Shown: positions 1-45,072, counted from the first letter of the stretch. The stretch is 64,000 bases of DNA from Escherichia coli (GCF_003334335.1 NZ_QOWQ01000019.1), one strand, 5' to 3'. Made by a program: numbers and translations. The notes: generated from the sequence alone by a model not told the origin.

Positions 1-2116
1 GAGCGAACAGCCGATTCGTTCCGCTTATCTCATTTCCCAGGCTGATTTTGTTGGCTGCCACCAGTTGCAGTTTATCGATAAATATCAGATGGCTGAGCGT
101 TTAAAACCTGGCGGCATTTTCCTGCTCAACACGCCGTACAGCGCAGATGAAGTGTGGTCGCGCTTGCCGCAAGAAGTTCAGGCCGTGTTAAACCAGAAAA
201 AAGCGCGCTTCTATGTGATTAACGCGGCGAAAATCGCCCGCGAATGTGGCCTGGCGGCCCGTATTAATACCGTCATGCAGATGGCTTTTTTCCATCTGAC
301 GCAAATTCTGCCTGGCGATAGCGCCCTCGCAGAATTGCAGGGTGCGATTGCCAAAAGTTACAGTAGCAAAGGCCAGGATCTGGTGGAACGCAACTGGCAG
401 GCTCTGGCGCTGGCGCGTGAATCCGTAGAAGAAGTTCCGTTGCAACCGGTAAATCCGCACAGCGCCAATCGACCGCCAGTGGTTTCCGATGCCGCCCCTG
501 ATTTCGTGAAAACCGTAACCGCTGCGATGCTCGCCGGGCTTGGTGACGCCCTCCCCGTTTCGGCGCTGCCGCCAGACGGCACCTGGCCGATGGGCACTAC
601 GCGCTGGGAAAAACGCAATATCGCCGAAGAGATCCCCATCTTGAAAGAGGAACTCTGTACCCAATGTAACCACTGCGTTGCCGCTTGCCCACACTCAGCT
701 ATTCGCGCAAAAGTGGTGCCGCCTGAAGCGATGGAAAACGCCCCTGCCAGCCTGCATTCGCTGGATGTGAAATCGCGTGATATGCGCGGGCAGAAATATG
801 TCTTGCAGGTGGCACCGGAAGATTGCACCGGTTGTAACCTGTGCGTCGAAGTTTGCCCGGCGAAAGACCGTCAGAATCCAGAGATTAAAGCCATCAATAT
901 GATGTCTCGCCTGGAACATGTCGAAGAAGAGAAAATCAATTACGATTTCTTCCTCAACCTGCCAGAAATCGACCGTAGCAAACTGGAACGTATTGATATT
1001 CGTACATCGCAGCTGATTACACCGCTGTTTGAATATTCAGGTGCTTGCTCCGGTTGTGGCGAGACGCCGTATATTAAATTACTGACTCAGCTCTATGGCG
1101 ACCGGATGTTGATCGCTAACGCCACTGGCTGTTCTTCAATTTATGGCGGTAACCTGCCCTCTACACCGTATACCACCGATGCCAACGGTCGTGGGCCGGC
1201 ATGGGCGAACTCTCTATTTGAAGATAATGCCGAATTTGGCCTTGGTTTCCGCCTGACGGTCGATCAACACCGTGTCCGCGTGCTGCGTCTGCTGGATCAA
1301 TTTGCCGATAAAATCCCGGCGGAATTACTGACGGCGTTGAAATCAGACGCCACGCCAGAGGTTCGTCGTGAACAGGTTGCAGCTTTACGCCAGCAACTCA
1401 ACGATGTTGCCGAAGCACATGAACTGCTACGTGATGCAGATGCACTGGTGGAAAAATCAATCTGGCTGATTGGTGGTGATGGCTGGGCTTACGATATCGG
1501 CTTTGGCGGTCTGGATCATGTATTGAGTTTGACGGAAAACGTCAACATTCTGGTGCTGGATACGCAATGCTATTCCAACACCGGTGGTCAGGCGTCGAAA
1601 GCGACACCGCTGGGTGCAGTAACTAAATTTGGCGAGCACGGCAAACGTAAAGCGCGTAAAGATCTTGGCGTCAGTATGATGATGTACGGTCATGTTTATG
1701 TGGCGCAGATTTCTCTCGGCGCGCAGCTGAACCAGACGGTGAAAGCGATTCAGGAAGCGGAAGCGTATCCGGGGCCATCGCTGATCATTGCTTATAGCCC
1801 GTGTGAAGAGCATGGTTACGATCTGGCACTCAGCCACGACCAGATGCGCCAACTCACAGCTACCGGCTTCTGGCCGCTATATCGCTTTGATCCGCGTCGT
1901 GCCGATGAAGGCAAACTGCCGCTGGCCTTGGATTCACGCCCGCCGTCAGAAGCACTGGAAGAAACGTTACTTCACGAGCAACGTTTCCGTCGGCTGAATT
2001 CGCAGCAGCCAGAAGTGGCAGAACAGTTATGGAAAGATGCTGCAGCTGATTTGCAAAAACGCTATGACTTCCTGGCACAAATGGCCGGAAAAGCGGAAAA
2101 AAGCAACACCGATTAA
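1..2116 (+). CDS. ydbK: pyruvate:flavodoxin oxidoreductase (PFOR), C-terminal part; 5' end lies outside the window
   Basis: Frame is open from position 2 to the stop at 2116; the translation carries two Cys-rich 4Fe-4S ferredoxin motifs (CTQCNHCVAACP, CTGCNLCVEVCP) and a TPP-binding GDGW region typical of PFOR/NifJ; matches recalled E. coli YdbK C-terminus. Confidence 0.9.
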   Translation, partial: SEQPIRSAYLISQADFVGCHQLQFIDKYQMAERLKPGGIFLLNTPYSADEVWSRLPQEVQAVLNQKKARFYVINAAKIARECGLAARINTVMQMAFFHLTQILPGDSALAELQGAIAKSYSSKGQDLVERNWQALALARESVEEVPLQPVNPHSANRPPVVSDAAPDFVKTVTAAMLAGLGDALPVSALPPDGTWPMGTTRWEKRNIAEEIPILKEELCTQCNHCVAACPHSAIRAKVVPPEAMENAPASLHSLDVKSRDMRGQKYVLQVAPEDCTGCNLCVEVCPAKDRQNPEIKAINMMSRLEHVEEEKINYDFFLNLPEIDRSKLERIDIRTSQLITPLFEYSGACSGCGETPYIKLLTQLYGDRMLIANATGCSSIYGGNLPSTPYTTDANGRGPAWANSLFEDNAEFGLGFRLTVDQHRVRVLRLLDQFADKIPAELLTALKSDATPEVRREQVAALRQQLNDVAEAHELLRDADALVEKSIWLIGGDGWAYDIGFGGLDHVLSLTENVNILVLDTQCYSNTGGQASKATPLGAVTKFGEHGKRKARKDLGVSMMMYGHVYVAQISLGAQLNQTVKAIQEAEAYPGPSLIIAYSPCEEHGYDLALSHDQMRQLTATGFWPLYRFDPRRADEGKLPLALDSRPPSEALEETLLHEQRFRRLNSQQPEVAEQLWKDAAADLQKRYDFLAQMAGKAEKSNTD

Positions 2117-2145
2117 ATGCTCTGGATAAGGATTATCCAATTCTA

Positions 2146-2178
2146 AAAAAAAAGCCCGGACGACTGTTCGGGCTTGTC
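2146..2178. terminator. bidirectional rho-independent terminator shared by ydbK and micC
   Basis: A-run, hairpin GCCCGGACGACTGTTCGGGC, then T-rich tract; reads as a terminator on both strands. Confidence 0.7.
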
Positions 2179-2255
2179 TTTTTATATGTTGGAAAATCAG
2201 TGGCAATGCAATGGCCCAACAGAAAATAAAATCTGTGACAATAAAGGCATATAAC
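2146..2255 (-). ncRNA. micC: MicC small regulatory RNA (Hfq-dependent, ompC-targeting)
   Basis: Reverse complement reads GTTATATGCCTTTATTGTCACAGATTTTATTTTCTGTTGGGCCATTGCATTGCCACTGATTTTCCAACATATAAAAAGACAAGCCCGAACAGTCGTCCGGGCTTTTTTT, matching the recalled MicC sequence; sits divergent from ompN as in K-12. Confidence 0.85.
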
Positions 2256-2482
2256 CCGCGCAGAATAACGTATAGCAAATTAAAAGTATAATTTTTATTT
2301 TGTATGTATTATCTTCGATACATTCACCAGACTTATTATCATTTCAGAGGAATTATTTGATTAAGGTTTTACTTAAGGCGTAACAAATGATATTTATCGG
2401 CTAACTGAACTTCTCCTTTAGGATGTTTTCACTCCCCGAAATGGGGATAAAAGGCAAATAAAATAACTAAAGGATTTATTCA

Positions 2483-3616
2483 ATGAAAAGCAAAGTACTG
2501 GCACTTTTAATTCCTGCCCTGCTCGCCGCAGGTGCTGCACATGCAGCCGAAGTTTATAATAAAGACGGCAACAAATTAGATCTGTATGGCAAAGTTGATG
2601 GCCTGCATTATTTTTCTGATAATTCAGCGAAAGATGGCGACCAGAGCTATGCGCGTCTGGGTTTTAAAGGCGAAACCCAAATTAACGATCAACTCACTGG
2701 CTACGGTCAATGGGAATACAATATTCAGGCAAACAACACTGAATCTTCAAAAAACCAGTCATGGACCCGTCTGGCATTTGCCGGGCTGAAATTTGCAGAT
2801 TACGGTTCTTTCGATTACGGACGTAATTATGGCGTAATGTACGACATCGAAGGCTGGACCGATATGCTGCCTGAATTTGGCGGTGACTCTTATACCAATG
2901 CAGACAACTTTATGACTGGTCGAGCCAATGGCGTCGCGACTTATCGTAATACTGATTTCTTCGGTCTGGTAAATGGTCTGAACTTCGCGGTGCAGTATCA
3001 AGGTAACAACGAAGGAGCCAGTAATGGTCAGGAAGGCACCAACAACGGACGTGATGTTCGCCATGAAAACGGTGACGGCTGGGGTCTTTCCACAACATAT
3101 GATTTAGGCATGGGCTTTAGCGCTGGTGCGGCATACACCTCTTCTGACCGCACCAATGACCAGGTTAACCATACTGCGGCGGGTGGTGATAAAGCAGACG
3201 CGTGGACTGCTGGGCTAAAATACGATGCTAACAATATTTACCTGGCAACCATGTATTCAGAAACGCGTAATATGACCCCGTTTGGCGACAGCGATTATGC
3301 TGTGGCAAACAAAACCCAGAATTTTGAAGTCACTGCACAGTACCAGTTTGATTTTGGTCTGCGTCCGGCAGTCTCTTTCCTGATGTCTAAAGGCCGTGAC
3401 CTGCACGCTGCGGGTGGTGCAGACAACCCGGCAGGTGTTGATGATAAAGATCTGGTTAAATACGCCGATATTGGCGCGACTTACTATTTCAATAAAAACA
3501 TGTCCACCTACGTTGACTATAAAATCAACCTGTTGGATGAAGATGACAGCTTCTACGCTGCCAATGGCATCTCTACCGATGATATTGTCGCTTTAGGTCT
3601 GGTTTATCAGTTCTAA
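2483..3616 (+). CDS. ompN: outer membrane porin N (OmpC/OmpF family)
   Basis: 377 aa; signal peptide [21 protein letters not shown]; C-terminal ...LVYQF porin signature; matches recalled OmpN. Confidence 0.92.
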
Positions 3617-3624
3617 ATCCTCCT

Positions 3625-3650
3625 GCCCGCTGTTATGGCGGGCTTTTTCT
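3625..3650 (+). terminator. rho-independent terminator after ompN
   Basis: Hairpin GCCCGC-tgttatg-GCGGGC followed by TTTTT. Confidence 0.6.
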
Positions 3651-3675
3651 GCTTATTCTTCCTCCTTTGATCTAA

Positions 3676-4191
<516 letters not shown>

Positions 4192-4198
4192 CACTAAC

Positions 4199-4224
4199 GC
4201 CCGCACATTGCTGCGGGCTTTTTG
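4199..4224 (+). terminator. rho-independent terminator after uspF
   Basis: Hairpin GCCCGCA-cattgc-TGCGGGC followed by TTTTT. Confidence 0.6.
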
Positions 4225-4367
4225 ATTCATTTCGCAAATGTGCTGACATTTTCCCCTCTAATCCGTACCATACACGCCACAGTTTTTTATATCAGATTTC
4301 TTATGCTGGGCGTTCCGGCATGACGCATACTCTTCTGATGCCATATAACGAATTGAGTCGCTTTTAA

Positions 4368-5303
4368 ATGTCGCAAAATCAAGAAATTAGTAAGAAAGAA
4401 CAATACAACCTGAACAAATTACAAAAACGTCTGCGTCGTAACGTGGGCGAAGCCATTGCTGACTTCAATATGATTGAAGAAGGCGATCGCATCATGGTTT
4501 GCCTCTCCGGGGGTAAAGACAGCTATACCATGCTGGAGATTCTGCGCAATTTGCAGCAAAGCGCGCCAATCAATTTTTCGCTGGTGGCTGTTAACCTCGA
4601 TCAAAAGCAACCGGGCTTCCCGGAACACGTTCTGCCCGAGTATCTTGAAAAGCTGGGCGTTGAGTACAAGATTGTTGAAGAGAATACTTACGGTATCGTG
4701 AAAGAGAAGATTCCAGAGGGCAAAACCACTTGCTCACTGTGTTCTCGCCTTCGTCGCGGTATCCTTTATCGTACCGCAACGGAACTGGGGGCGACGAAGA
4801 TCGCGTTGGGTCACCATCGTGACGATATCCTGCAAACGTTGTTCTTAAATATGTTCTACGGCGGTAAGATGAAAGGTATGCCTCCGAAACTGATGAGCGA
4901 TGATGGCAAACATATCGTTATTCGTCCGCTGGCCTACTGCCGCGAGAAAGATATTCAGCGATTTGCCGATGCAAAAGCGTTCCCGATTATTCCGTGCAAC
5001 CTGTGCGGTTCACAGCCTAACCTGCAACGTCAGGTGATTGCTGACATGTTGCGTGACTGGGATAAACGTTATCCAGGGCGTATCGAGACGATGTTCAGCG
5101 CGATGCAGAATGTGGTGCCGTCGCATCTGTGCGATACCAACCTGTTCGATTTCAAAGGCATCACCCACGGTTCTGAAGTGGTTAACGGGGGTGATCTGGC
5201 GTTTGATCGCGAAGAGATCCCACTACAACCGGCGTGCTGGCAGCCAGAAGAAGATGAAAATCAGTTGGATGAGTTACGGCTGAATGTGGTTGAAGTGAAA
5301 TAA
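4368..5303 (+). CDS. ttcA: tRNA 2-thiocytidine(32) synthetase
   Basis: 311 aa; PP-loop SGGKDS motif and CxxC pairs; N-terminus [56 protein letters not shown] matches recalled TtcA. Confidence 0.92.
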
Positions 5304-7065: not shown

Positions 7066-7187
7066 AAAAAAAAGCCGACTCATCAAAGTCGGCGTCGTAC
7101 GAATCAATTGTGCTATGCAGTAATTCAAAAAAGGAAGTAAGACAATATGGAGCGCAACGCCCATCGCTTGACGTTGCATTCACCTGC
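7066..7187 (-). ncRNA. fnrS: FnrS small RNA (FNR-activated, Hfq-dependent)
   Basis: Reverse complement reads GCAGGTGAATGCAACGTCAAGCGATGGGCGTTGCGCTCCATATTGTCTTACTTCCTTTTTTGAATTACTGCATAGCACAATTGATTCGTACGACGCCGACTTTGATGAGTCGGCTTTTTTTT, matching recalled FnrS; intrinsic terminator at the 3' end. Confidence 0.85.
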
Positions 7188-10564: not shown

Positions 10565-10659
10565 ACCGGCGCAGAGGAGACAATGCCGGATTTAAGACGC
10601 GGATGCACTGCTGTGTGTACTGTAGAGTCTGGCGGATGTCGACAGACTCTATTTTTTTA
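10565..10659 (+). ncRNA. mcaS: McaS (IsrA) small RNA
   Basis: ACCGGCGCAGAGGAGACAATGCCGGATTTAAGACGCGGATGCACTGCTGTGTGTACTGTAGAGTCTGGCGGATGTCGACAGACTCTATTTTTTT matches recalled McaS; ends in a hairpin plus T-run abutting the abgR stop. Confidence 0.8.
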
Positions 10660-10666
10660 TGCAGTT

Positions 10667-18951: not shown

Positions 18952-19194
18952 GATGTAATCCTTGTGCAGACAAATTTCTTGTTACCTAAACGTAACAATA
19001 CCATGACATTTCACCGTTGTCTGCTCTGAAAACCTCACCTCTTAGCTGGATTTACAATCAACGCATTGATTAGTTAGCTAATGTTGCTACTTCCTTCCCT
19101 GACTATTGATGATCTGAATGAATTGTCGCGGTAAAATAGCCCCGCCAGGGGTTTCCGGCATGACGACAATTATCTGGAGGAGCCTGATAAAACA

Positions 19195-33214: not shown

Positions 33215-34297
33215 TTAGCGAATTGCTATTTCCGTTTCTGCATCAAAGAAATGACATTTCGTCATATCAAAATGAATAGTGATATTTTCTCCTGCATGAT
33301 AATCATTTAACGCACCAGCACGGACCACTAACTCGTGCCCCCCAACCGTGGTGTAGAGCATAAATTCCGCACCGGTTAATTCTGCCACGCTAATTTTGGC
33401 GGAAATGTTATTTTCCTCTTGCGCGTCCGGATGAATATCTTCCGGTCGTATTCCCATCACGATGGGCTTATGCAAACTTTCCTGTGTTTTCAGAACCGCT
33501 AATTTCTCTTCGGGAATGGTTAATTTAAGCGTTTCCGTAACGAATTTATCGCCATCGATCGTGCCGCGAATAAAATTCATCGCTGGTGATCCAATAAATC
33601 CGGAAACAAACATATTCGCGGGTTGGTTATAAACGGTTTTCGGCGCACCTACTTGCTGAACAATCCCGTCTTTCATAATCACAATCCGCGTCGCCATGGT
33701 CATCGCTTCGGTCTGATCGTGGGTCACGTAGATCATGGTGGTGTTCAGTTTCTGATGCAGCTTGCTGATCTCTGCGCGCATTTGCACGCGCAGCTTGGCA
33801 TCAAGGTTAGAGAGCGGTTCATCCATTAAAAACACGCCCGCTTCGCGTACAATCGCCCGCCCAAGCGCCACTCGCTGACGTTGCCCGCCGGAAAGCGCCT
33901 CCGGCTTACGTTTCAGGTACTCACGCAGGCCGAGAATTTGCGCCGCCCAGTTCACCCGCTCATCAATCACCTCTTTGGCGATTTTTTGCATCTTCAGACC
34001 AAACGCCATGTTGTCGTAAACCGTCATATGCGGATACAACGCGTAGTTCTGGAACACCATCGCTATATTGCGTGCTTTGGCTGGAACGTCATTCATTCGT
34101 TTGCCGTCGATCAACAGATCGCCGCCGCTGATCTCCTCAAGCCCGGCAATCATGCGCAGGGTGGTCGACTTACCGCAGCCCGACGGGCCGACAAACACGA
34201 TGAACTCTTTATCGGCAATTTCCAGGTTGAAGTCCTTCACCACATGCACCTGGTTATCGTAGATTTTTTGAATATGTTGTAACGAAAGCTGAGCCAT
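33215..34297 (-). CDS. ycjV: ABC transporter ATP-binding protein (MalK/UgpC-like), intact
   Basis: 360 aa; Walker A GPSGCGKST, ABC signature LSGGQRQR, Walker B LMDEPLSNLD; MalK-like C-terminal domain. Confidence 0.85.
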   Translation of the reverse strand: MAQLSLQHIQKIYDNQVHVVKDFNLEIADKEFIVFVGPSGCGKSTTLRMIAGLEEISGGDLLIDGKRMNDVPAKARNIAMVFQNYALYPHMTVYDNMAFGLKMQKIAKEVIDERVNWAAQILGLREYLKRKPEALSGGQRQRVALGRAIVREAGVFLMDEPLSNLDAKLRVQMRAEISKLHQKLNTTMIYVTHDQTEAMTMATRIVIMKDGIVQQVGAPKTVYNQPANMFVSGFIGSPAMNFIRGTIDGDKFVTETLKLTIPEEKLAVLKTQESLHKPIVMGIRPEDIHPDAQEENNISAKISVAELTGAEFMLYTTVGGHELVVRAGALNDYHAGENITIHFDMTKCHFFDAETEIAIR

Positions 34298-34310: not shown

Positions 34311-34970
34311 CTATACGTTTTGCCAGAAGGCCGATAACCGCGGCCAGGTGAGTGATTCCGTTGAAGGCAACAGTAATTGCGCCCCGGTTAAGCCCGCGCC
34401 GATCCCCACCGAGCGCATACCGCTGGCGTTAATGGCGTCAATGCCCGCCTGCGCATCTTCAATGCCGATACATGCCTGCGGCGGCACGCCCAGCCCTGCA
34501 CAGGCGGCGAGAAAGATTTCCGGGTCCGGTTTCGAGTTTTTAAGTTGGGAAGCATCCGCGCAGAAGGTGAAAAACTCGCGCAGCTCCAGCGCCGCTAAAA
34601 TCGTCGGCGCATTCAGGGAGACAGAAGCCAGCCCAACCGAGATCTGCTGTGCACGGAGATCTGCCAGCAAAGAGCGAATGCCGGGTAGAACAGCGTTGAC
34701 CGTCAACTCGCGTAGTGAGTGGACATAGAGCAGATTTTTGCGATACGCCAGTTGCGCCCTCTCCTGCGAGTTAAAGTCGCCCTCTTTGCCCCCGTGTTGC
34801 AGAATGCGCCGCAGAGACTCATCGCGGCTGATCCCTTTTAGGGATTCGTTAAACTGCGCATCAATGCTGATGCCAATTTCAGCGGCAATCTGCTGCCACG
34901 CCTGGAAATGCAGATGCGCGGTATCGGTGATTACACCATCCAGATCGAAAATTACCCCTTGCAGTTTCAT
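34311..34970 (-). CDS. ycjU: beta-phosphoglucomutase (HAD superfamily)
   Basis: 219 aa; HAD motif I DLDGV near the N-terminus; overlaps the ycjT stop. Confidence 0.88.
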
Positions 34971-37234
34971 TCATCCTCCTGATGTTTGGTAGCGGTCCCA
35001 TTGAAGGGCAAAATAAAATCACCCAAACAGAAAACAGATTCTTCAGCCACGGTTATAAGCTGACCGTTCAAACGCAGTGAAACGGGCGCAGAAGTTCGAA
35101 TCGCAATACGCTGCGCGTCAAGAGTGACCTGTAATTCGCAGCCCTGCCAGAACAGAGGGAAAGACAACTGTTGCCACTGCTCAGGTAACGCCGGATTGAG
35201 ATGCAATTCACCGTCACGCACGCTCACCCCGGCAAAACCCTGAATCGCCCCCAGCCAGATAGCGCCAGTTGCGGCAGCATGGATACCATCATCACAACTA
35301 TGCGGATCAGCACCAAGATCGATTTCAGTCCCCTCGCGCCAGAACTGATAACTTTGGGTCAGCAGGCCACAGCGTGCGGCAACAATGCCGTGGATTGCTT
35401 TACTTAATGACGAGTCGTGAATAGTGCGCGGTTCATAAAATTGCAGATTGGCAAGACACGATGCCGCTGAGAACTGCTCCGGCAGCATGTAATTGAGCAT
35501 CACCACATCAGCTTGTTTGAGGATCTGCATCTCGTTCACTTCTGCGCGTGAATAATCCAGCAGTATGGTTTGCTTCCCCGCCGCCGCTTTGTATTTCGCC
35601 AGATTAATCGCCGGCTTAGCCATAAACGAATCATCCTGCGGCAAAACGCCGTCGGGCTGAATTTCTGGCATCCATAGCTCTTTGAGGAACATTTCGGCGC
35701 GATGGATAAACGCATCGTCGCTACAGCCGAACTGGCGGGCAATATTCAGCGCCTGTTGAACGTTGTAGCGGGCCATATAGCTGGTGTATGCATTATTATT
35801 GACATGTTCGGTATATTCGTCTGGCCCAATAACATCATGAATTTCCAGACGATCGTTAACTCTCACCGCGCGGCTAATCCAGAACTTTGCCGTCTCCAGA
35901 AGTAGCGCCATGCCTTCATGCGCAATGAAACTTTCATCCCCCGTGGTCTGCCAGTATTGAATAACCGCCCAGGCGATATCGGCCACCAGATGATGTTCCG
36001 CCTGCGCCGAGGCCACTTTTTGCCGCAGCCCGGTGCGAATGTTAATGGCGGCAAATTCCGGCGTCTCTTCTTCGCCGCTGCGCGCGCTTTCCCACGGAAA
36101 TAGCGCGCCCTGCCAGCCGTTGCGTCGCGCTTTCTCCTGCGCGCCTGGCAAGTTGTGCCAGCGATAACGCAGTAAACTTCGGGCAACCGTCGGATCGCTA
36201 AACAGATGAAACGGTAACAAAAATACTTCTGTATCCCAGAAAACGTGGCCTTTGTAGCCTTCGCCGGTTAAGCCTTTTGCCGCAATGCTGCTGCGCTCGT
36301 CGTGGGCAGGCGTCATGATGCGCAGATGATAAAGCGCATAATCTAACGCTTGCTGATCGTGCGCTTCGCCGCCATTTACCGTGATACGACGTTTCTGCCA
36401 CCATTGACGCCAGTTTTCTGTTGATGCTGCAAGAAGTTGGTCGTAACTCTGCTGCGCGCACATTTCAAGCTGGCGAAGCGACGCGCTGCCCCACTCGTCT
36501 AAAGCAGCTTGCCTGTCATCCCGCCAGTCGATCCACACCAGTTTTTGCAACGTCATTGTCTCGCCTGCATGAAGCTGCGCACTGGTATGTTGCAGTAAAC
36601 GGCGCTCTTTGGCGGTATAGCATTGCTGCACATCACCGCTCACCTTACAGCAACAGCTGATGGCCACATCACTGCGTCCATCCTGGGTGGTGTAGCTCCC
36701 CTGCATCAGATGCTGACCAAACACCCGCACCTGGGTTTCGTCGAGATGTTGGCGACCGTGATTGGTTTGCGTGGCGTCAATGCCTGTTGAAATCAGCACT
36801 GACGCGTCGGCGTCCAGTGGCGTAATAGTGATTTCCAGCGCAATGAGCGGCAGTTGGTCTGCCGAAACAAAGCGACGGCTGGCGATGGTGTAACCTGAGC
36901 CGTTGCTGGTACGCCAGACAACATTGCGGCGTAATTCGCCACTGGCAAAGTCAAGCTCACGCTGCCAGGCTTCGTGGGATAACGAGAAAACCTCACCATT
37001 TATGGCAATCTCCATCCCCACGACATCAGGCAGGTTCACCAGTTCGTTGATTTCACCTTTTCCCGCCCGATGATACAGCCCCGCCAGATACATCCCTCGC
37101 GTCTGGCGCGTGTAATCTTCTTCATGGCTGGCGCGAAGCCCAAGATAGCCGTTCCCCTGCGCCATCAGCGATGCATACTTGTTCAGGGTATGCTGGCTGA
37201 AATGGGGTTCTGATAACGTTACTGGCCTGGTCAT
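34967..37234 (-). CDS. ycjT: glycoside hydrolase family 65 disaccharide phosphorylase (kojibiose phosphorylase)
   Basis: 755 aa; GH65 size and architecture; matches recalled YcjT. Confidence 0.88.
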
Positions 37235-38286
37235 AATTCCACACGCGTCCCTGTTTCTGCGGATTGATACAACGCCGCCACCAGTTGCTGGATGATGTAC
37301 CCCTGCTCGGCGTCGGCTATCATCACGGGCTTGCCCTGTACGTGATTGATAAAGGCTTCCATGCTGCGCAAATGGCGGTTGTCGTCTGCCATTTCCCGTT
37401 GCATCAGCGTCATTAATTCACCGTTGTTATCGGTGTAGATATGTGCTGGAAACAGCGTCGCACCAGCTTTATCACCACAAAAGCTGACGTTCATAATCGA
37501 CTGTTCGCGGATGTTGAGTGCAAATGACGTTTCCAGCCACAGAATGCCGCCGTTATGAAATTCAATGGTGCCAAACAGCGAATCTTCGACGCTGTAAGTT
37601 GCCGGATCCCACTCACCAAATTGACCACAGCTCTTTTGCGTGCCGATCTTTTGAAAGCTATGCGCATTCACGCTTTTCACCGCCGGAAAGCCCAGCACAT
37701 ACATCGCAGCATCCAGCATATGAATGCCGATGTCGATCAGCGGGCCACCACCCTGCAGTTCTTTATTGGTAAAGACACCCCAGCCGGGAACGCCGCAGCG
37801 ACGCAGGGCGCGGGCGGTGGTAACGTAAATCTCTCCCAAAACGCCGTTGGTCACCTGTTCACGCAGCTGTTGCGTATCGAGCGCAAAACGATGGTGAAAG
37901 TCGTAGGCCAGCACCTTGCCCAGTTTGCGCGCGGTATCGCACATTTCCCGCGCCTGTTCTGGCGTCATGGCGGGCGGTTTTTCGCACATCACATGGCAGC
38001 CCGCTTCCAGTGCCATCAGGGTATGTTCGTAATGAAAACGGTTAGGTGAGCAGACGCTAACCACATCAGGTTTCACCGCCAGCAGCATGGCCTGCGGATC
38101 GTCCCACACGGATGCATTCCCGTATTTTTCTGCCAGCGCCTGCGCCTGGGAAAGGCGGCTGTCACAGACAGCCACCAGTTCCAGATCGTTGCGGGTGCAG
38201 TAGTACGAAGCATGAACCTTATCCGCCACCTGGCCTGCGCCTATTATCGCGACCCGCAGCGGAGAGCTTGTCATTGCACTTTTCAC
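37231..38286 (-). CDS. ycjS: Gfo/Idh/MocA-family NAD-dependent sugar oxidoreductase
   Basis: 351 aa; N-terminal Rossmann motif (IIGAGQVADKVH); overlaps the ycjT start. Confidence 0.88.
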   Translation of the reverse strand: MKSAMTSSPLRVAIIGAGQVADKVHASYYCTRNDLELVAVCDSRLSQAQALAEKYGNASVWDDPQAMLLAVKPDVVSVCSPNRFHYEHTLMALEAGCHVMCEKPPAMTPEQAREMCDTARKLGKVLAYDFHHRFALDTQQLREQVTNGVLGEIYVTTARALRRCGVPGWGVFTNKELQGGGPLIDIGIHMLDAAMYVLGFPAVKSVNAHSFQKIGTQKSCGQFGEWDPATYSVEDSLFGTIEFHNGGILWLETSFALNIREQSIMNVSFCGDKAGATLFPAHIYTDNNGELMTLMQREMADDNRHLRSMEAFINHVQGKPVMIADAEQGYIIQQLVAALYQSAETGTRVEL

Positions 38287-38295
38287 AAAGACCTC

Positions 38296-39084
38296 TTAGC
38301 AGGTACGCAACCAGGCCAACGAATCACGGTACGCCTGGGCAGGATCTTCCGCCCGGATACGCCCTTCGTACACTACATAGCCCTGATAGTTATCCGCGCG
38401 CAGCTGTTCAAACAGCGCGTGGAAATCCAGGGTGCCGCTGCCCGGCTGGTAGCGATGGTTATCCGCAATATGCACATGACCGAGCAGGTCGCGGTTGTCA
38501 TGCAGCGCCTGCGCCAGGTTATCTTCTTCGATATTCATGTGATAGAAATCGCCGATAATCTGTACATGTTTAAGATCGTTTTCGACGATGTAACGGCGGG
38601 CATCGGCGAGGGTGTTGATCATATGATCCTGATAGCGGTTTAACGGTTCGAGATACACCACGGTTCCGGTACGCGCGGCGACCTGTTCCAGTACGCGCAG
38701 GGAATCACTCACCATTTTGCGGTCGCCGTCCAGGCTACGCGGCGAGGTCATCGGCGGTAAGCGGAAGGTAAACATGCCCCACGCAGCCGGAACGACGATG
38801 CCTTTACCGCCCACTTCTGCCAGCGCTTCGAGAATGCGCTCGATCTGCTTTAAGCCATTAAGACGACGCTCTTCGATAAAGTCGCCAATCCATCCGTCAT
38901 AGCCACCGCAGGCGGTGGTCACCGGTAAACCGGTTTCTTTGATCGCCGCTTTGACTTCTTCGATGTTGTTAACCAGCAGTTTGCCGTCAATCTCAAAACC
39001 ATCGAAGCCCATCTCTTTGATATAACGAAATTTCTCCAGAATGTTTTCCGGAAAGAACGCCTGATTCTGTGTGCCGATTTTCAT
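38296..39084 (-). CDS. ycjR: sugar-phosphate isomerase/epimerase (xylose-isomerase-like TIM barrel)
   Basis: 262 aa from ATG 39084 (MKIGTQNQAFFPEN); an alternative ATG lies 3 codons upstream at 39093. Confidence 0.85.
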   Translation of the reverse strand: MKIGTQNQAFFPENILEKFRYIKEMGFDGFEIDGKLLVNNIEEVKAAIKETGLPVTTACGGYDGWIGDFIEERRLNGLKQIERILEALAEVGGKGIVVPAAWGMFTFRLPPMTSPRSLDGDRKMVSDSLRVLEQVAARTGTVVYLEPLNRYQDHMINTLADARRYIVENDLKHVQIIGDFYHMNIEEDNLAQALHDNRDLLGHVHIADNHRYQPGSGTLDFHALFEQLRADNYQGYVVYEGRIRAEDPAQAYRDSLAWLRTC

Positions 39085-39102
39085 TTTTTTCATTCCTTTG
39101 AA

Positions 39103-40155
39103 TTAAAACGTAACGCCCATTTTGATGCTCTGTTCCGGATGCTGGTCGACATACTGCATATAGCTTTCCGGGCTATTGGCAAAGGTCACCACCGGGTCGA
39201 TTAAATCTTCGCAATTGAGATAACCGTTCATCAGCAGTTCCCAACAGGTTTCTTCAATACGCTTGCGGCTCCAGCGCGGATAATCCGGGTTCGGTTCGCT
39301 GCACGCGCGAGAGAAGACAATTTTGGCGTTATTGAAATGCGCTTCGCGTCCGAGGTTAAAACCTTCGGCAAACGGCTTGGCAAACGCGACATAGGAGATG
39401 GTGCCGCCATAAGCCAGACCGCGGAGCGCCGATTGCAGCGCGTCGGCGTAGCCGCTGGTTTCGATAATCACATCGGCACCCTGCTTGCCGGTCAGCGTTT
39501 TGATCTCTTTACCTACATCAGTGCCGATGGGGTTAAGGCAGAAATCCGCGCCGTGGCGACGGGCAATATCACAGCGATGGGCGATAGGATCGACGCCAAT
39601 CACCACAGAAGCGCCAGCGCGTTTAGCCAGTTGGATGGCAATTTGACCGATTGCGCCAAGCCCTACCACCACCACAAAATCCCCTACGCGCACGTTGGCA
39701 TCGCGCACGCCGCTCATGGCAAACTGCGCCGGGTCGTAGCAGACGGCGTTTTTCCAGGAGCTGCCTTGCGGCATTTTGCGCAGCTTGTAGTTATTCACTG
39801 CGTTAATGATGACCGTCTCGGAGAGCGGGCCGTAGCCGCATACGCTGTCGCCCACCGCGTAGTCGGTAACGTCGCTGCCGCACTCGATAATGTCGCCAAC
39901 CACCATGTTGCCAAGCTGGAATTTGCCAAACTCAATGCCGCGCGGCGCATCTGCCGGACGCGGAGTGAACATCTGCCATTCGCCGTTAAAGTCTTCATCA
40001 ATAAACGGGCTGGCGGCGCGGAAGTCGACCACTTCCGTTCCGTGTTTCGGTGCGCCGAAACGCACGCGGATCTTCACTTCATTAGCTAAAATCGCCCGAT
40101 CTTCATACTCAACCAGCGCAGCAACACGCGGTGCTGTGGCTACTAACTTTTTCAT
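39103..40155 (-). CDS. ycjQ: zinc-dependent medium-chain alcohol/sugar dehydrogenase
   Basis: 350 aa; MDR-family GxGxxG (VVVGLGAIGQIA). Confidence 0.88.
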   Translation of the reverse strand: MKKLVATAPRVAALVEYEDRAILANEVKIRVRFGAPKHGTEVVDFRAASPFIDEDFNGEWQMFTPRPADAPRGIEFGKFQLGNMVVGDIIECGSDVTDYAVGDSVCGYGPLSETVIINAVNNYKLRKMPQGSSWKNAVCYDPAQFAMSGVRDANVRVGDFVVVVGLGAIGQIAIQLAKRAGASVVIGVDPIAHRCDIARRHGADFCLNPIGTDVGKEIKTLTGKQGADVIIETSGYADALQSALRGLAYGGTISYVAFAKPFAEGFNLGREAHFNNAKIVFSRACSEPNPDYPRWSRKRIEETCWELLMNGYLNCEDLIDPVVTFANSPESYMQYVDQHPEQSIKMGVTF

Positions 40156-40185: not shown

Positions 40186-41028
40186 TTAGCCCTTCACGCC
40201 ACCGGCGGTCAAACCACTCTTAATAAAACGTTCCGAAAGCGCATACATAATCACCACCGGCAATGCGGTCACCAGTGAGGCCGCCATCATCCGTCCCCAG
40301 ATGTAATCTGGCGTACTGAACAGCGCGTTCAGGCCCACAGGTAAGGTGAAATTGCTGGCGCTGGAGAGGAAAATCGACGCAAACAGATAGTCGTTCCACG
40401 CCACCATAAAGCAGTAGACGAACACGGATATCAGCCCGGACATCGCCAACGGCACGGTGATGCGGAAGATAATTTGCAGACGGTTGAGGCCATCCATCAT
40501 CGCCGCTTCTTCGATCTCATCGGGGATGGTGTCGAAGTAGCTTTTCAGCATAAACACGGCGGTGGGCAGAGTTTGCGTCACCATGGTGATGATCAGCGCC
40601 ATCTCAGTGTCGTAAATGCCAAGCGCGGTGATGATTTTGAAAAGCGGCACCACCAGCAAAATGCCAGAGAACATATACACCGTGTAAAAGCTGGCGTTGA
40701 TGGTCATCCGACCTTTAAAGCGCAGGCGGGAAAGCGCGTAAGCCCCAAGAATGCCGAGGAATACCGCCACCACGGATGAAACCACAGACACCACCAGACT
40801 GTTACGGAAGTAGTCGACAAACGGGAAAATCATCGGGTTAAAAATGTCGACGTAATGCTCCAGCGTCCACTGCTGCGGCAGCAGCGTAGGATGCAGTGAG
40901 ATCGCCTCTTTCGCGCCCTTGAACGAGGTCATCAGCATCACAAAAAATGGAAACAGCGTGATGATGAGAAACAGCGCCAGCTCGCAGTAAAAACCGATGC
41001 GACTGAGTGTGCGTTTATTTGTTGCCAT
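40186..41028 (-). CDS. ycjP: ABC sugar transporter permease
   Basis: 280 aa; multi-pass membrane protein with binding-protein-dependent-transport EAA-like loop (EEAAMMDGLNRLQIFFRITVP). Confidence 0.88.
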   Translation of the reverse strand: MATNKRTLSRIGFYCELALFLIITLFPFFVMLMTSFKGAKEAISLHPTLLPQQWTLEHYVDIFNPMIFPFVDYFRNSLVVSVVSSVVAVFLGILGAYALSRLRFKGRMTINASFYTVYMFSGILLVVPLFKIITALGIYDTEMALIITMVTQTLPTAVFMLKSYFDTIPDEIEEAAMMDGLNRLQIIFRITVPLAMSGLISVFVYCFMVAWNDYLFASIFLSSASNFTLPVGLNALFSTPDYIWGRMMAASLVTALPVVIMYALSERFIKSGLTAGGVKG

Positions 41029-41896
41029 TGAGGTTCACCCGTTTCCTGGTCAGCAGAATGACAGCGAAAATAATGATGAAGAGCACCACCGAGATCGCCG
41101 CCGCTTTTCCTAAATCATTAAAGGCAAAGGCGGTTTTGTAGAGATATACACCGAGAATATCGACCTTGGTCGTCAGCAAATAAACATCCGCGAACATGTA
41201 GAACATCCAGATGGTGCGCAGTGTCACCACCGTCGCCAGGACCGGCATAATTGCGGGCAGCGTGACGATACGAAACCGTTGCCAGGCATTAGCGCCATCC
41301 ATCTCTGCCGCTTCGTACAGCGATTTGTCGATGGTCTGCAAAATCGCCAGAAACGAGATAAAGGCATACGGGAAGTAGCGCCAGATGGCGAACAGCACCA
41401 CCAGCACAAAGCTACTGCCCGGATTATCGAACCACAGCGGTGCCTGCTCATAGAGATGCAGAAGATCGACGCCGAGGTAGTTAACAATGCCGTAGCCGTT
41501 GTTGAACATGTATTTCCAGGCGAACACCAGCGAAATGGACGGCGTTACGTAGGAGAGGATCACCAGCGAACGCGCGGTTTTGCGCAGGCGGAACTCGCGG
41601 TTGAAAAACATCGCCACCGCCAGCCCGAGCACGGTGCTGCCCGCCACCACCAGCGCGGTATACCAGACCGTCATCCACAGCGAATGCCAGAAGCCGGGAT
41701 CGGAGAGGATACGCACATAGTTGCTCACCCCAACAAACGTTGACTCGATGTTGGGATTGAGCGGCAGACGTAAAAAACTGATTTCGATATTCGACACCAT
41801 CGGCCACGCCACCAGACCGCCCAGCAGTAATAAGCTGGGCGCGAGAAGCAGCAGCGCAAAGGGCATATCGGAACGACCTGAAAAAAGCCTGTTCAT
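41015..41896 (-). CDS. ycjO: ABC sugar transporter permease
   Basis: 293 aa; EAA loop (YEAAEMDGANAWQRFRIVTLP); overlaps the ycjP start. Confidence 0.88.
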   Translation of the reverse strand: MNRLFSGRSDMPFALLLLAPSLLLLGGLVAWPMVSNIEISFLRLPLNPNIESTFVGVSNYVRILSDPGFWHSLWMTVWYTALVVAGSTVLGLAVAMFFNREFRLRKTARSLVILSYVTPSISLVFAWKYMFNNGYGIVNYLGVDLLHLYEQAPLWFDNPGSSFVLVVLFAIWRYFPYAFISFLAILQTIDKSLYEAAEMDGANAWQRFRIVTLPAIMPVLATVVTLRTIWMFYMFADVYLLTTKVDILGVYLYKTAFAFNDLGKAAAISVVLFIIIFAVILLTRKRVNLNGNK

Positions 41897-41916
41897 TGCG
41901 GATTCCTGTCCTGGGT

Positions 41917-43209
41917 TTAGTGCTGTTCGATCAGTTCATCCAGTTTTTTCTGGCTCGCTTGCAGCGTAGTAGAGAGATCGGCTTTACCCACGGTGACGTT
42001 ATGCACCATTGAACTCACCACGCCAGAACCCGTCACATCACCCATGCGGGTAAAGTTTTTATCCCCTACTGCGCCAAAAACCTGAATATTTGGCAGTTCA
42101 CCGATTAGCTGATTCGGTAGTTCACCCAGCGCCTTAATAACGTCGTTGTCTTTCCAGGTGGCGGTAGTCACCACCGCTTTATTCACCGGCAGCGCAGCAC
42201 CTGGCGACATCATCACCCAGTCGGCAATGTTGTCTGCCTGCTCCATAAAGGTGACAAATTTTTCTGCTGCTTCCGTCTCTTCGGTCTTTTGCCCGGCGGT
42301 AATGGTCAGCGAGGTCAACATGCCGTAGACCGCAGAGTTTTTCTCGGTTGGCACCACGAAACCGACGTTTTTCGGGTCGCCTTCTTTAATCACAGCCGGA
42401 AGGATATAGGTGGAGTAAATCGCCATCGGCGCGGTGCCGTTCATAAAGGCGTCTTTCACTTCCATGATGTCGTTAGAACCCGGCATAGTGTTGGCAGCAA
42501 GGTCGCGGTAATAGGTCAGTGCCTGCATCATCTCTGGTGTATCAAGGGTGATTTTGCCTTCGGCGTTAAAGACGTTAGCCTGGTTGGATAACGCAAACTG
42601 GGAGAAGGATTGTTCCGTCAACACGCTTTCTGCTGTAGGCAGCGCAATGCCGTATTTTTTATTCGCCGGGTCATTCAGTTTCTGTGCAACGTCCAGCAGC
42701 TGTTGCCAGTTTTTCGGCTCCTCAAGCCCCGCTTTTGCCAGCACATCTTTGCGATACCAGATACCGCCAATCCAGGCGCTGACAGGAACACCGGTCCATG
42801 CGCTACCATCTTCGGTACGCACAATACGCAGTACGCCATCGTAAAACGCGCCTTCACCAACGTTGCTGATGACTGTGGCAACCGCTTTGCGATCGATAAG
42901 CTGCTCTTTGTCCATCACTTTGGCGTAGTCATGGCTGGTTTCGATCACTTCCGGCAGCGAACCGCTACGTGAAAGAGTAATGACTTTAGTGTTATAGGCA
43001 TCTTCTTCCACGGGCACTTGCTTAACGGTGATGCCAGGGTTTTCTTTTTCAAAACGGGCAATCAATTTACTGATAACGGCCTGGCGCTCCTGCTCCACCG
43101 AAGAATGCATAAATTCGATGGATACATTCGTTTTATTTTCTTCTTTACAGCCTGAAATCAGGGCGCATGAAACCAGTGCTGATAACAGCACGATTTTTGA
43201 TTTAATCAT
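41917..43209 (-). CDS. ycjN: periplasmic sugar-binding protein of the ABC transporter
   Basis: 430 aa; lipoprotein-like signal peptide ending LISGC. Confidence 0.88.
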   Translation of the reverse strand: MIKSKIVLLSALVSCALISGCKEENKTNVSIEFMHSSVEQERQAVISKLIARFEKENPGITVKQVPVEEDAYNTKVITLSRSGSLPEVIETSHDYAKVMDKEQLIDRKAVATVISNVGEGAFYDGVLRIVRTEDGSAWTGVPVSAWIGGIWYRKDVLAKAGLEEPKNWQQLLDVAQKLNDPANKKYGIALPTAESVLTEQSFSQFALSNQANVFNAEGKITLDTPEMMQALTYYRDLAANTMPGSNDIMEVKDAFMNGTAPMAIYSTYILPAVIKEGDPKNVGFVVPTEKNSAVYGMLTSLTITAGQKTEETEAAEKFVTFMEQADNIADWVMMSPGAALPVNKAVVTTATWKDNDVIKALGELPNQLIGELPNIQVFGAVGDKNFTRMGDVTGSGVVSSMVHNVTVGKADLSTTLQASQKKLDELIEQH

Positions 43210-43222
43210 GAGATGTTCCTTT

Positions 43223-44902
43223 TTATTTAATCCACATAACCTGCCAGGGGCGCAGCGTTATTTCATTACCCAATATATCAACTTCACTAATCAGATCCCG
43301 ACCATGCAGATTAGTAATATTTACATGCTGAATATTTTTACTGACATTAAACAATCCAGTCAGACAATTACCATCAGCGTTACTTCTTTGAATACGCATT
43401 ACGGATGAATTAATCGTATCAATGGTAAAATTATTATCCGGATGAAACTCGTTATGGCTGCGACGAAGTGTAATTAAACGCGACAACTCATGATATACCG
43501 CATGCCTTAATGTAGCTTCATCGTTCAGTTCTCGGGTTATCTCTTTACTGTGATATTTTTTACGGTTAATCGCACGGTTATATCCGATTTTTTCGACACC
43601 TGCGTAATCATTACGCGAGCCAAGAATACTTTGAATATATATCGCTGGCACACCGGGGAAACTTAACAAAATCGCATGGGCAAGGATAAACCTGGCGCAA
43701 CGTTCTTCATCGCTACTCTCACGGCGGCTTAACGCATCCATATAGGTCACATTTATTTCATACGGACTGCGTGTACCGTCGGGATTATTTTTCCAGTTTA
43801 CTAATGCACCTTCCTGCTGTAACGCCTCGACCAGCTCTAATATTTCGCTTTCAGGCAACAAGCCCCGTAGCGGGTTTAGCCCGATGCCATCGTGAGAGGC
43901 GAGGAAGTTAAACCAGGTGGTGTTGCTGGAAGGTAGTGTCAGGTTTTGCGCCCACGCACAAAGCGCCTCAACGTTCTGTTTTTGCACCGCATGCAGCACC
44001 AGTGGCGGCAGCGAGAACTGGTACACCATATGTGCTTCGTCATCGCCTGCGCCAAAGTAAGCAATGTTGTCTTTATGCGGAACATTGGTCTCGGTAATGA
44101 TCACTGTACCTGGCGCAACGTTATCAATAATCGACCGTAACAGTTTGATAATCAGATGTGTTTTTTCCAGATGGATGCAGCTTGTTCCCGGCTCTTTCCA
44201 CATAAAGCCAACGGCATCCAGGCGGACATACTCAGCACCTTTCGCAAGGTAACAGAGTAAAACATCCACCATCGCCAGCAACACTTCAGGGCTACGGTAA
44301 TTCAGGTCAATTTGATCGTCACTAAAGGTGGTCCATAAATGGCGCGTTGAATGATCGCGCATCTGGAATGGCGTTAATAACGGTAACGCACGCGGGCGAG
44401 TGACGGCGCTGAGATCGGTTTGCGGGTCAACGGCAATAAAAAAATCTTCAAAACCTGGATGCTGTTGTAAATAGTTTTTAAACCATTCACTTTTTGCCGA
44501 CATATGGTTGCAGACAAAATCAAACATTAAATGACTGCATTCACCGAGTTGCTGAATATCCTGCCACTCCCCCGCTTCACTGGCGACCTGATGATAATCA
44601 ATTACCGAAAAGCCATCATCAGATGACCATGGATAAAACGGCAACAAATGAACATGTGAAAAAATGCTTTGCAGCCATTGATGGTAAAACTGATTAAATG
44701 TGGGTAATGGTTTTAAATCATTGCTGTGAAATTGATCGGCATAGGTAATTAACACGACATCACTTTCATCCCAGTGTTTTTTACGTCGCTGTGTAATTAA
44801 TCGTTTCGCACTCTCAAGACGCGTTACAAGTTTCTGTAAATGAGTTGCGGTAAATGTTCCACCGTAGATTTCGTCCAGGTAATCCGTAATTTTCTGTTTC
44901 AT
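43223..44902 (-). CDS. ycjM: GH13_18 sucrose-phosphorylase-like enzyme (glucosylglycerate phosphorylase)
   Basis: 559 aa from ATG 44902 (MKQKITDYLDEIYGG matches recalled YcjM); the track ORF extends 9 codons upstream. Confidence 0.88.
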   Translation of the reverse strand: MKQKITDYLDEIYGGTFTATHLQKLVTRLESAKRLITQRRKKHWDESDVVLITYADQFHSNDLKPLPTFNQFYHQWLQSIFSHVHLLPFYPWSSDDGFSVIDYHQVASEAGEWQDIQQLGECSHLMFDFVCNHMSAKSEWFKNYLQQHPGFEDFFIAVDPQTDLSAVTRPRALPLLTPFQMRDHSTRHLWTTFSDDQIDLNYRSPEVLLAMVDVLLCYLAKGAEYVRLDAVGFMWKEPGTSCIHLEKTHLIIKLLRSIIDNVAPGTVIITETNVPHKDNIAYFGAGDDEAHMVYQFSLPPLVLHAVQKQNVEALCAWAQNLTLPSSNTTWFNFLASHDGIGLNPLRGLLPESEILELVEALQQEGALVNWKNNPDGTRSPYEINVTYMDALSRRESSDEERCARFILAHAILLSFPGVPAIYIQSILGSRNDYAGVEKIGYNRAINRKKYHSKEITRELNDEATLRHAVYHELSRLITLRRSHNEFHPDNNFTIDTINSSVMRIQRSNADGNCLTGLFNVSKNIQHVNITNLHGRDLISEVDILGNEITLRPWQVMWIK

Positions 44903-45072
44903 GTTGCCTTTCCGTGGTAGCGGTCCCATGAAACGAGAGACTACTCCGCAGAAAATAAACTGTCAATTGAGCACAAGGGTTTTAGTCACGCAGGAAATCA
45001 TTTTTTACCAGGGAAAAAGCGTATTTGTGAGCTGACGCAAATAATCTATGGGGATGTAAATAAGGTGTGACA

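Follow-up and report, generated by a model that had tools for sequence, protein, structure and literature searches.

The ycjV gene of the window, by which we mean the whole 64,000-nucleotide stretch of Escherichia coli DNA that was analysed (GCF_003334335.1, NZ_QOWQ01000019.1), is very probably an ancestral, intact gene, the tenth of the YcjW-repressed ycjMNOPQRSTUV-ompG operon, encoding the NBD of a CUT1 importer of the MalK/UgpC/MsmX type. The allele is an ordinary wild-type one that is already known, with nothing new in the gene itself, and in thousands of RefSeq genomes the intact gene bears the annotation "ABC transporter ATP-binding protein". What sets it apart is the comparison with K-12, in which ycjV is a derived form produced by a -1 slip in a run of six G residues, the form found in the window being ancestral.

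Table 1. Features of the window, with positions counted from its first nucleotide
Feature	Position	Strand	Remarks
nifJ/ydbK, 3' part	65-2116		
MicC sRNA	2138-2258		Rfam, 125 bits
ompN	2483-3616		
uspF	3685-4191		
ttcA	4368-5303		Directly beside uspF
FnrS sRNA	7070-7187		134.8 bits; K-12 position
McaS sRNA	10565-10660		118.4 bits; K-12 position
ycjW	31156-32154	plus	LacI-family operon repressor (PMC6599011); 100% identical to K-12
ompG	32265-33170	minus	Monomeric outer-membrane porin; 100% identical to K-12
ycjV-ompG spacer	33171-33214	minus	44 bp; hairpin GGGGGAAGGCATTCCCCC and ompG ribosome-binding site
ycjV CDS	33215-34297	minus	360 codons plus stop; ATG start; single uninterrupted ORF
ycjV codons 321-360	33218-33337	minus	Last 40 YcjV residues (TOBE/OB); out of the ycjV frame in K-12, where annotated as ymjB
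G6 homopolymer (C6 on plus)	33338-33343	minus	Gene positions 955-960, codons 319-320 (GGG GGG); G5 in K-12
Walker B VFLMDE	33818-33835	minus	YcjV residues 155-160; D-loop next; script motif scan
ABC signature LSGGQ	33881-33895	minus	YcjV residues 135-139; script motif scan
ycjV codon 133, GAG (Glu)	33899-33901	minus	A at gene position 398; G in K-12, giving Gly133
Walker A (P-loop) GPSGCGKS	34166-34189	minus	YcjV residues 37-44; script motif scan
Q-loop			YcjV Q83; script motif scan
D-loop SNLD			YcjV residues 163-166; script motif scan
H-loop			YcjV H193; script motif scan
ycjU (pgmB)	34311-34970	minus	Beta-phosphoglucomutase; 100% identical to K-12
ycjT	34967-37234	minus	Kojibiose phosphorylase; 100% identical to K-12
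Candidate YcjW operator, second identical copy	34987-35000	minus	TGGGACCGCTACCA; inside the ycjT 3' end, 17-30 nt upstream of the ycjU start
ycjS, ycjR, ycjQ	37231-40155	minus	D-glucoside/D-guloside 3-dehydrogenases and 4-epimerase; intact; YcjS I299M
ycjP, ycjO, ycjN	40186-43209	minus	Permease subunits (YcjP, YcjO) and lipoprotein substrate-binding protein (YcjN); intact
ycjM	43223-44902	minus	Glucosylglycerate phosphorylase; intact; L439I, P505Q
Candidate YcjW operator	44915-44928	minus	TGGGACCGCTACCA; 13-26 nt upstream of the ycjM start codon

The ycjV reading frame and its product

A search of the ycjV ORF of the window for an internal stop codon or an overlooked frameshift, based on the ORF listing and on alignment to the K-12 allele, found none. 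The ATG start lies 13 nt beyond the stop codon of ycjU, and inspection of this spacer revealed an AAGGA ribosome-binding site. The encoded protein is an ABC NBD (PF00005) that carries the full set of motifs, including the catalytic Glu of Walker B, in canonical order (Table 1). Pfam assigned an ABC_tran domain to residues 21-162 (2.3e-31), followed by OB_MalK at residues 236-288 (6.5e-14) and TOBE_2 at residues 282-351 (9.8e-10), so that YcjV possesses, after the NBD, the C-terminal OB/TOBE regulatory domain of about 125 residues by which CUT1 ATPases of the MalK/UgpC/MsmX type are recognized. The ORF, the motif scan and the Pfam assignments thus agree with the sequence-only reading that had prompted the analysis, which described an uninterrupted gene of this length with Walker A, signature and Walker B motifs and a MalK-type C-terminus.

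Regarding its place within the family, YcjV scored 483.9 bits against the NCBIfam model NF008653 (UgpC subfamily), above the cut-off of 432, and 430.1 bits against the MalK equivalog model NF008233, below the cut-off of 568. By these profile scores YcjV is a paralogue of MalK and not MalK itself. The best match among solved structures was MsmX (6yir), which aligned from residue 1 to 365 with YcjV residues 1-360 (E = 5.5e-149). AlgS, archaeal MalK, E. coli MalK and SugC ranked next and also aligned end to end. Since the alignment with MsmX reaches the last residue, 360 amino acids correspond to the native full length of YcjV.

The K-12 lesion

The sequence-only reading had stated that ycjV is annotated as disrupted in K-12, and both the MG1655 annotation and our alignments bear this out. 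In MG1655 the region is annotated as two pseudogenes, ycjV (b1318, 1380821-1381789) and ymjB (b4524, 1381789-1381902), which together span 1082 bp, and RefSeq labels K-12-type copies of ycjV as "frameshifted". We aligned the gene of the window to the K-12-type allele of an O16:H48 strain (PG20180060) and, by blastn, to MG1655. The comparison with MG1655 gave 99.8% nucleotide identity, with one mismatch and one gap, the same count of differences as against the PG20180060 allele; the two genes are therefore not identical, the window having one SNP and one extra G, and the alignment places the lesion, a 1-bp deletion in K-12, in the G-run at codons 319-320.

In the G5 allele of K-12, Gly319 and Gly320 are followed by Thr, Ser and a stop codon, giving a product of 322 amino acids. 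The truncated protein is identical to that of the window over residues 1-320 except at position 133, and the gene occupies the same locus, between ycjU and ompG. The 40 residues that K-12 lacks line up with the C-terminal strands of MsmX through to the end of that protein and make up approximately the final third of the regulatory barrel at the C-terminus, a barrel formed by residues 236-365 in MsmX (PMC7658222). Because the product stops at residue 322, part-way through the regulatory domain, ycjV has the status of a pseudogene in K-12, and we infer that the truncation inactivates the importer. Restoration of the K-12 frame by programmed frameshifting or transcriptional slippage was considered and rejected, as it appears unlikely at a run of five G residues and is irrelevant to the window.

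Apart from this site the two sequences are very similar. The 21-kb ycj locus of the window is colinear with that of MG1655 (99.95% identity, nine mismatches and one gap), and the G-run is the sole indel across the 59.5 kb of the window that can be aligned to K-12 (99.97% identity).

Distribution of the G6 and G5 alleles in E. coli

To place the two alleles within the species, we surveyed 5426 complete E. coli genomes. The gene was found in 5002 of them, at least 80% of it being covered in 4981. A 49-mer with the G5 run of K-12 had an exact match in 370 genomes. A further 4461 genomes matched it at 95-99% identity; nearly all of the sampled matches in this band were 98.0% identical, and those at 98.0% spanned 50 bases, which is the G6 form.

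We characterized the G5 genomes from 60 of the 370, sampled across the set. Most were K-12 derivatives, including MG1655, W3110-type, C600, J53, HB101, MC4100, DH-type and Keio-type strains and transconjugant recipients. G5 is thus mostly, but not strictly, confined to K-12: the alleles of 95-3192 (15 SNPs from the K-12 allele) and of OkiPb01701/01709 (5 SNPs) are not of K-12 type, and represent either independent slips or homopolymer sequencing errors. In two further genomes, EcN_Sk and PJ-T13, the G5 allele is identical to that of K-12, which suggests K-12-derived DNA or a mix-up. It should be noted that EcN_Sk is named as a Nissle derivative, yet its ycjV is unlike that of the reference Nissle genome.

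An alternative reading of the window is that its sixth G arose through an error of sequencing or assembly at the homopolymer and that the strain really carries the K-12 allele. Long-read assemblies are indeed error-prone at homopolymer runs, and the few G5 assemblies from outside K-12 could be such errors in the opposite direction. Nevertheless, about 4600 independent complete genomes have the 50-base form, as judged from the 95-99% (4461 genomes) and 90-95% (130 genomes) identity bands of the G5 49-mer, which SNP-bearing G5 genomes could share; at least four assemblies made independently match the window at 100% identity across 24.5 kb, G6 site included; and the G6 frame matches MsmX to its last residue. 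Such an error is very improbable, and we retain G6 as the true sequence.

The more divergent alleles of O157:H7, Nissle 1917, S10EC and 98218 (95.7-98.1% nucleotide identity) all have the G6 run and an open frame. Pairwise dN/dS among these four intact alleles was 0.02-0.10, which indicates that ycjV is under strong purifying selection. In addition, the exact YcjV protein of the window was present on at least 1000 contigs in a collection of 15 billion proteins. Taken together, the population counts and the purifying selection imply that intact ycjV is the ancestral and selected state and that K-12 is the outlier. The idea, implicit in the sequence-only reading, that this strain is special in having an intact gene is therefore not borne out, as the census of 5426 genomes makes intact ycjV the norm of the species.

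The minority codon at position 133

The single mismatch with MG1655 changes codon 133, two residues before the LSGGQ signature. Most E. coli carry GGG or GGC (Gly) at this codon, and an exact 49-mer with the Glu133 codon was found in 108 of the 5426 complete genomes, making it a minority allele.

It could be argued from this residue that the ORF is open but that YcjV is impaired by a lineage-specific G133E substitution that damages ATP-dependent dimer closure, or else that the operon is cryptic, so that speaking of a complete system would be an overstatement. The rarity of Glu133, the presence of Gly133 in the five other E. coli alleles examined (K-12, O157:H7, Nissle, S10EC and 98218), the lack of an acidic residue at the equivalent position of solved homologues, and the tight repression of the operon by YcjW in K-12 (PMC6599011) would fit such a reading. 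Against it, position 133 is variable (Gly in E. coli; Lys, Arg or Ser in the solved homologues), lies outside the invariant LSGGQ and is evidently tolerant; the abundance of the exact protein in the contig collection points to a successful and widespread lineage; and the remainder of YcjV is conserved under strong purifying selection. We consider an impaired protein or a cryptic operon improbable, and favor a functional, ancestral YcjV.

The ycj locus and its surroundings

In the window, ycjV lies between ycjU (pgmB) and ompG, near ycjW, in the same gene order as in K-12, the position expected of an orthologue. All 12 genes (ycjM to ycjV, ompG and ycjW) are intact. The genes from pspF through pspE, ycjM to ycjU, ompG, ycjW and ycjX have their K-12 lengths, show no internal stop codons and share 99.76-100% nucleotide identity with K-12; the substitutions in the importer proteins YcjN, YcjO and YcjP are YcjP G16E and YcjN T238A. 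The product names in Table 1 are those of the MG1655 annotation, and the underlying biochemistry has been summarized previously (PMC6599011). The proposal of a complete uptake and catabolic system consequently stands with regard to the integrity of its genes; it holds at the level of the sequence, at which the regulatory components are present as well, and with the minority Glu133 residue in YcjV.

Two further features of the operon deserve mention. The ycjM gene has a G+C content of 0.43-0.44 (window 43000-44999), compared with 0.51-0.56 in the other genes of the operon, which hints at a separate origin. The GGGGGAAGGCATTCCCCC hairpin in the spacer between ycjV and ompG is G+C-rich and has no T-tract behind it; it does not resemble an intrinsic terminator and may instead act before ompG in the processing or stability of the mRNA.

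Outside the locus, the window differs from K-12 at several sites. The IS5F element of K-12 (insH4, ynaI/ynaJ) is absent at 19074-19077, where the flanking K-12 blocks abut with a 4-bp overlap that is consistent with an empty IS5F target site. The cryptic prophage Rac is also absent (window 1-5303), while K-12 has the 23-kb Rac between these same neighbors. The last 76 bases (63925-64000) depart from the K-12 sequence and correspond to the end of IS421 (IS4-like), inserted in a C-run of the ycjD-fabI spacer approximately 155 bp upstream of fabI. This insertion is absent from K-12 and from WP5-S17-ESBL-10, the latter being 100% identical to the window over 21000-45500. That the window is K-12 itself was ruled out by the ycjV G-run, the absence of IS5F and Rac, and the IS421 end at its right edge.

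Candidate YcjW operators

YcjW represses ycjM-V-ompG, and kojibiose frees YcjW from DNA in vitro (PMC6599011). Luhachack et al. mapped YcjW by ChIP to peaks that share a conserved 14-bp motif, including one "between ycjT and ycjU" (PMC6599011). A generic inverted-repeat search for a YcjW operator returned nothing. Restricting the search to 14-mers centered on CG identified TGGGACCGCTACCA, an imperfect palindrome, in exactly two copies in the 64 kb, and no further copies with up to two mismatches were found in the same 64 kb. Both copies fit the places of the ChIP peaks (PMC6599011), one before ycjM (peak 1) and the other at ycjT/ycjU, and their position and form suggest that they are probably YcjW operators. 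The internal candidate operator implies a separate control of ycjU-ycjV-ompG.

Proposed role of YcjV

In the mechanism that we propose, a glucoside would cross the outer membrane via OmpG, a porin that admits oligosaccharides, be captured by the lipoprotein YcjN and be passed to the YcjO/YcjP permease pair. By analogy with MalFGK2, a YcjV dimer would dock on YcjO/YcjP, hydrolyze ATP and drive import. Each subunit is predicted to consist of a RecA-like and helical ATPase core followed by the OB/TOBE regulatory domain, and the dimer would close on two ATP molecules, with the Walker A of one subunit set against the LSGGQ of the other, giving rise to alternating access. This is the mechanism of type I ABC importers, for which MalFGK2 is the template, and both the context of the operon and published biochemistry support it. 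We infer, on the strength of this analogy, that YcjV would energize YcjNOP.

Once in the cytoplasm, imported glucosides would be turned into glucose phosphates by YcjT, YcjU, YcjM and YcjQRS. The enzyme activities have been shown by others: YcjT phosphorolyzes kojibiose to glucose and beta-glucose-1-phosphate, the latter being converted to glucose-6-phosphate by YcjU; YcjM phosphorolyzes glucosylglycerate; and YcjQRS interconvert gulosides and glucosides.

Regarding the ATPase itself, full-length E. coli YcjV (WP_000057985.1, whose allele may differ from the Glu133 protein of the window) has been purified, is stable and hydrolyzes ATP (Leisico et al. 2020, PMC7658222, Supplementary Fig. 2). 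As for substrate capture, YcjN did not bind any sugar of a screen in which kojibiose was among those tried (PMC11543891).

Implications for work on the Ycj pathway in K-12

On minimal medium with kojibiose MG1655 fails to grow, whether or not ycjW is deleted (PMC6599011, citing Mukherjee 2018). The lack of rescue by the ycjW deletion is what would be expected if uptake, and not expression, were blocked. It is conceivable, although we consider it rather unlikely, that the ycjV frameshift is the reason why MG1655 fails on kojibiose even without ycjW, and the same frameshift may lie behind the elusive physiological substrate of the pathway. That YcjN did not bind kojibiose, and that MalK or UgpC might cross-energize the importer, both argue against an uptake block as the simple answer. 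If the proposal were true, K-12 would be a natural null for YcjNOP-V uptake, and strains like that of the window, or K-12 repaired by one G, would take up the true substrate and grow on it; possible candidates for this substrate are kojibiose, glucosylglycerate, a guloside or some similar glucoside from plants.

Studies of YcjN, of YcjW and of growth with kojibiose have relied on K-12 or on material from it, and the missing C-terminus of the ATPase goes unmentioned in them. A text search for "pseudogene" in PMC6599011, in PMC11543891 and its preprint, and in PMC13053599 found no occurrence, nor did a search for "frameshift" in PMC6599011 and PMC11543891; at least one of PMC6599011, PMC11543891 and PMC13053599 used genetics in K-12. 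K-12 would be the wrong background in which to study the Ycj uptake system, and natural isolates or a one-base repair could help to find the substrate of this orphan pathway.

Other reports also touch on the gene. In metabolic engineering, K-12 ycjV serves as a neutral site for integration (PMC10380740, PMC11731478). K-12-like oral isolates have already been noted to have an intact ycjV, unlike MG1655 (PMC8009128), and ycjV of EHEC has been reported as a bovine gut colonization factor (according to PMC8009128). Furthermore, the Keio ycjV deletion strain is reported to separate its nucleoids and to constrict its cells early (PMC6018989), a phenotype that possibly arises through a polar or cassette effect on ompG; the same paper refers to YcjV as a predicted ABC ATPase, though the gene is a pseudogene in K-12.

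Comparison with MsmX and MalK

The closest relative of solved structure is MsmX of Bacillus subtilis (6yir), which has, like YcjV, a RecA-like domain, a helical domain and a C-terminal regulatory barrel. The two proteins share 69.7% identity over the ungapped residues 1-290, and an overall identity of 64% has been reported (PMC7658222). They differ in genetic context: MsmX is encoded by an orphan gene and serves several CUT1 oligosaccharide importers, whereas ycjV belongs to a single importer's operon and has been described as the NBD encoded within the ycj importer cluster (PMC7658222).

Given this similarity, it might be proposed that YcjV is a shared multitask ATPase that energizes several CUT1 importers, its nearest solved relative being a multitask protein. 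This is highly improbable in view of several observations. Genes of the multitask type (MsmX/MsmK/MsiK) are orphans, and ycjV is borne by the operon of a single importer. To our knowledge, K-12 lost ycjV without losing any known sugar uptake system, which likewise counts against a shared role. A multitask signature of charged residues has been proposed (D77, R104, E110 and K154 in MsmX numbering; PMC7658222), and YcjV has N77, Q104, V110 and G154 instead, so that all four are replaced. Finally, YcjV failed to replace MsmX in a B. subtilis msmX null strain (PMC7658222), an assay of replacement of MsmX in B. subtilis and not of the native pairing with YcjNOP. We therefore keep to YcjV as the probable dedicated NBD of the importer encoded alongside it.

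MalK of E. coli (1q12, 2r6g, 3puv and others) resembles YcjV in family, in domain order and in the presence of OB_MalK and TOBE domains, but the identity between them is moderate only, in line with the equivalog score of 430 against the 568 bits required; MalK is 45% identical to MsmX (PMC7658222). MalK also contacts MalT and EIIAGlc for regulation, contacts that YcjV is not known to make. Within MalFGK2, MalK is the template for the tweezers-like closure of the NBDs coupled to the EAA loops of the permease.
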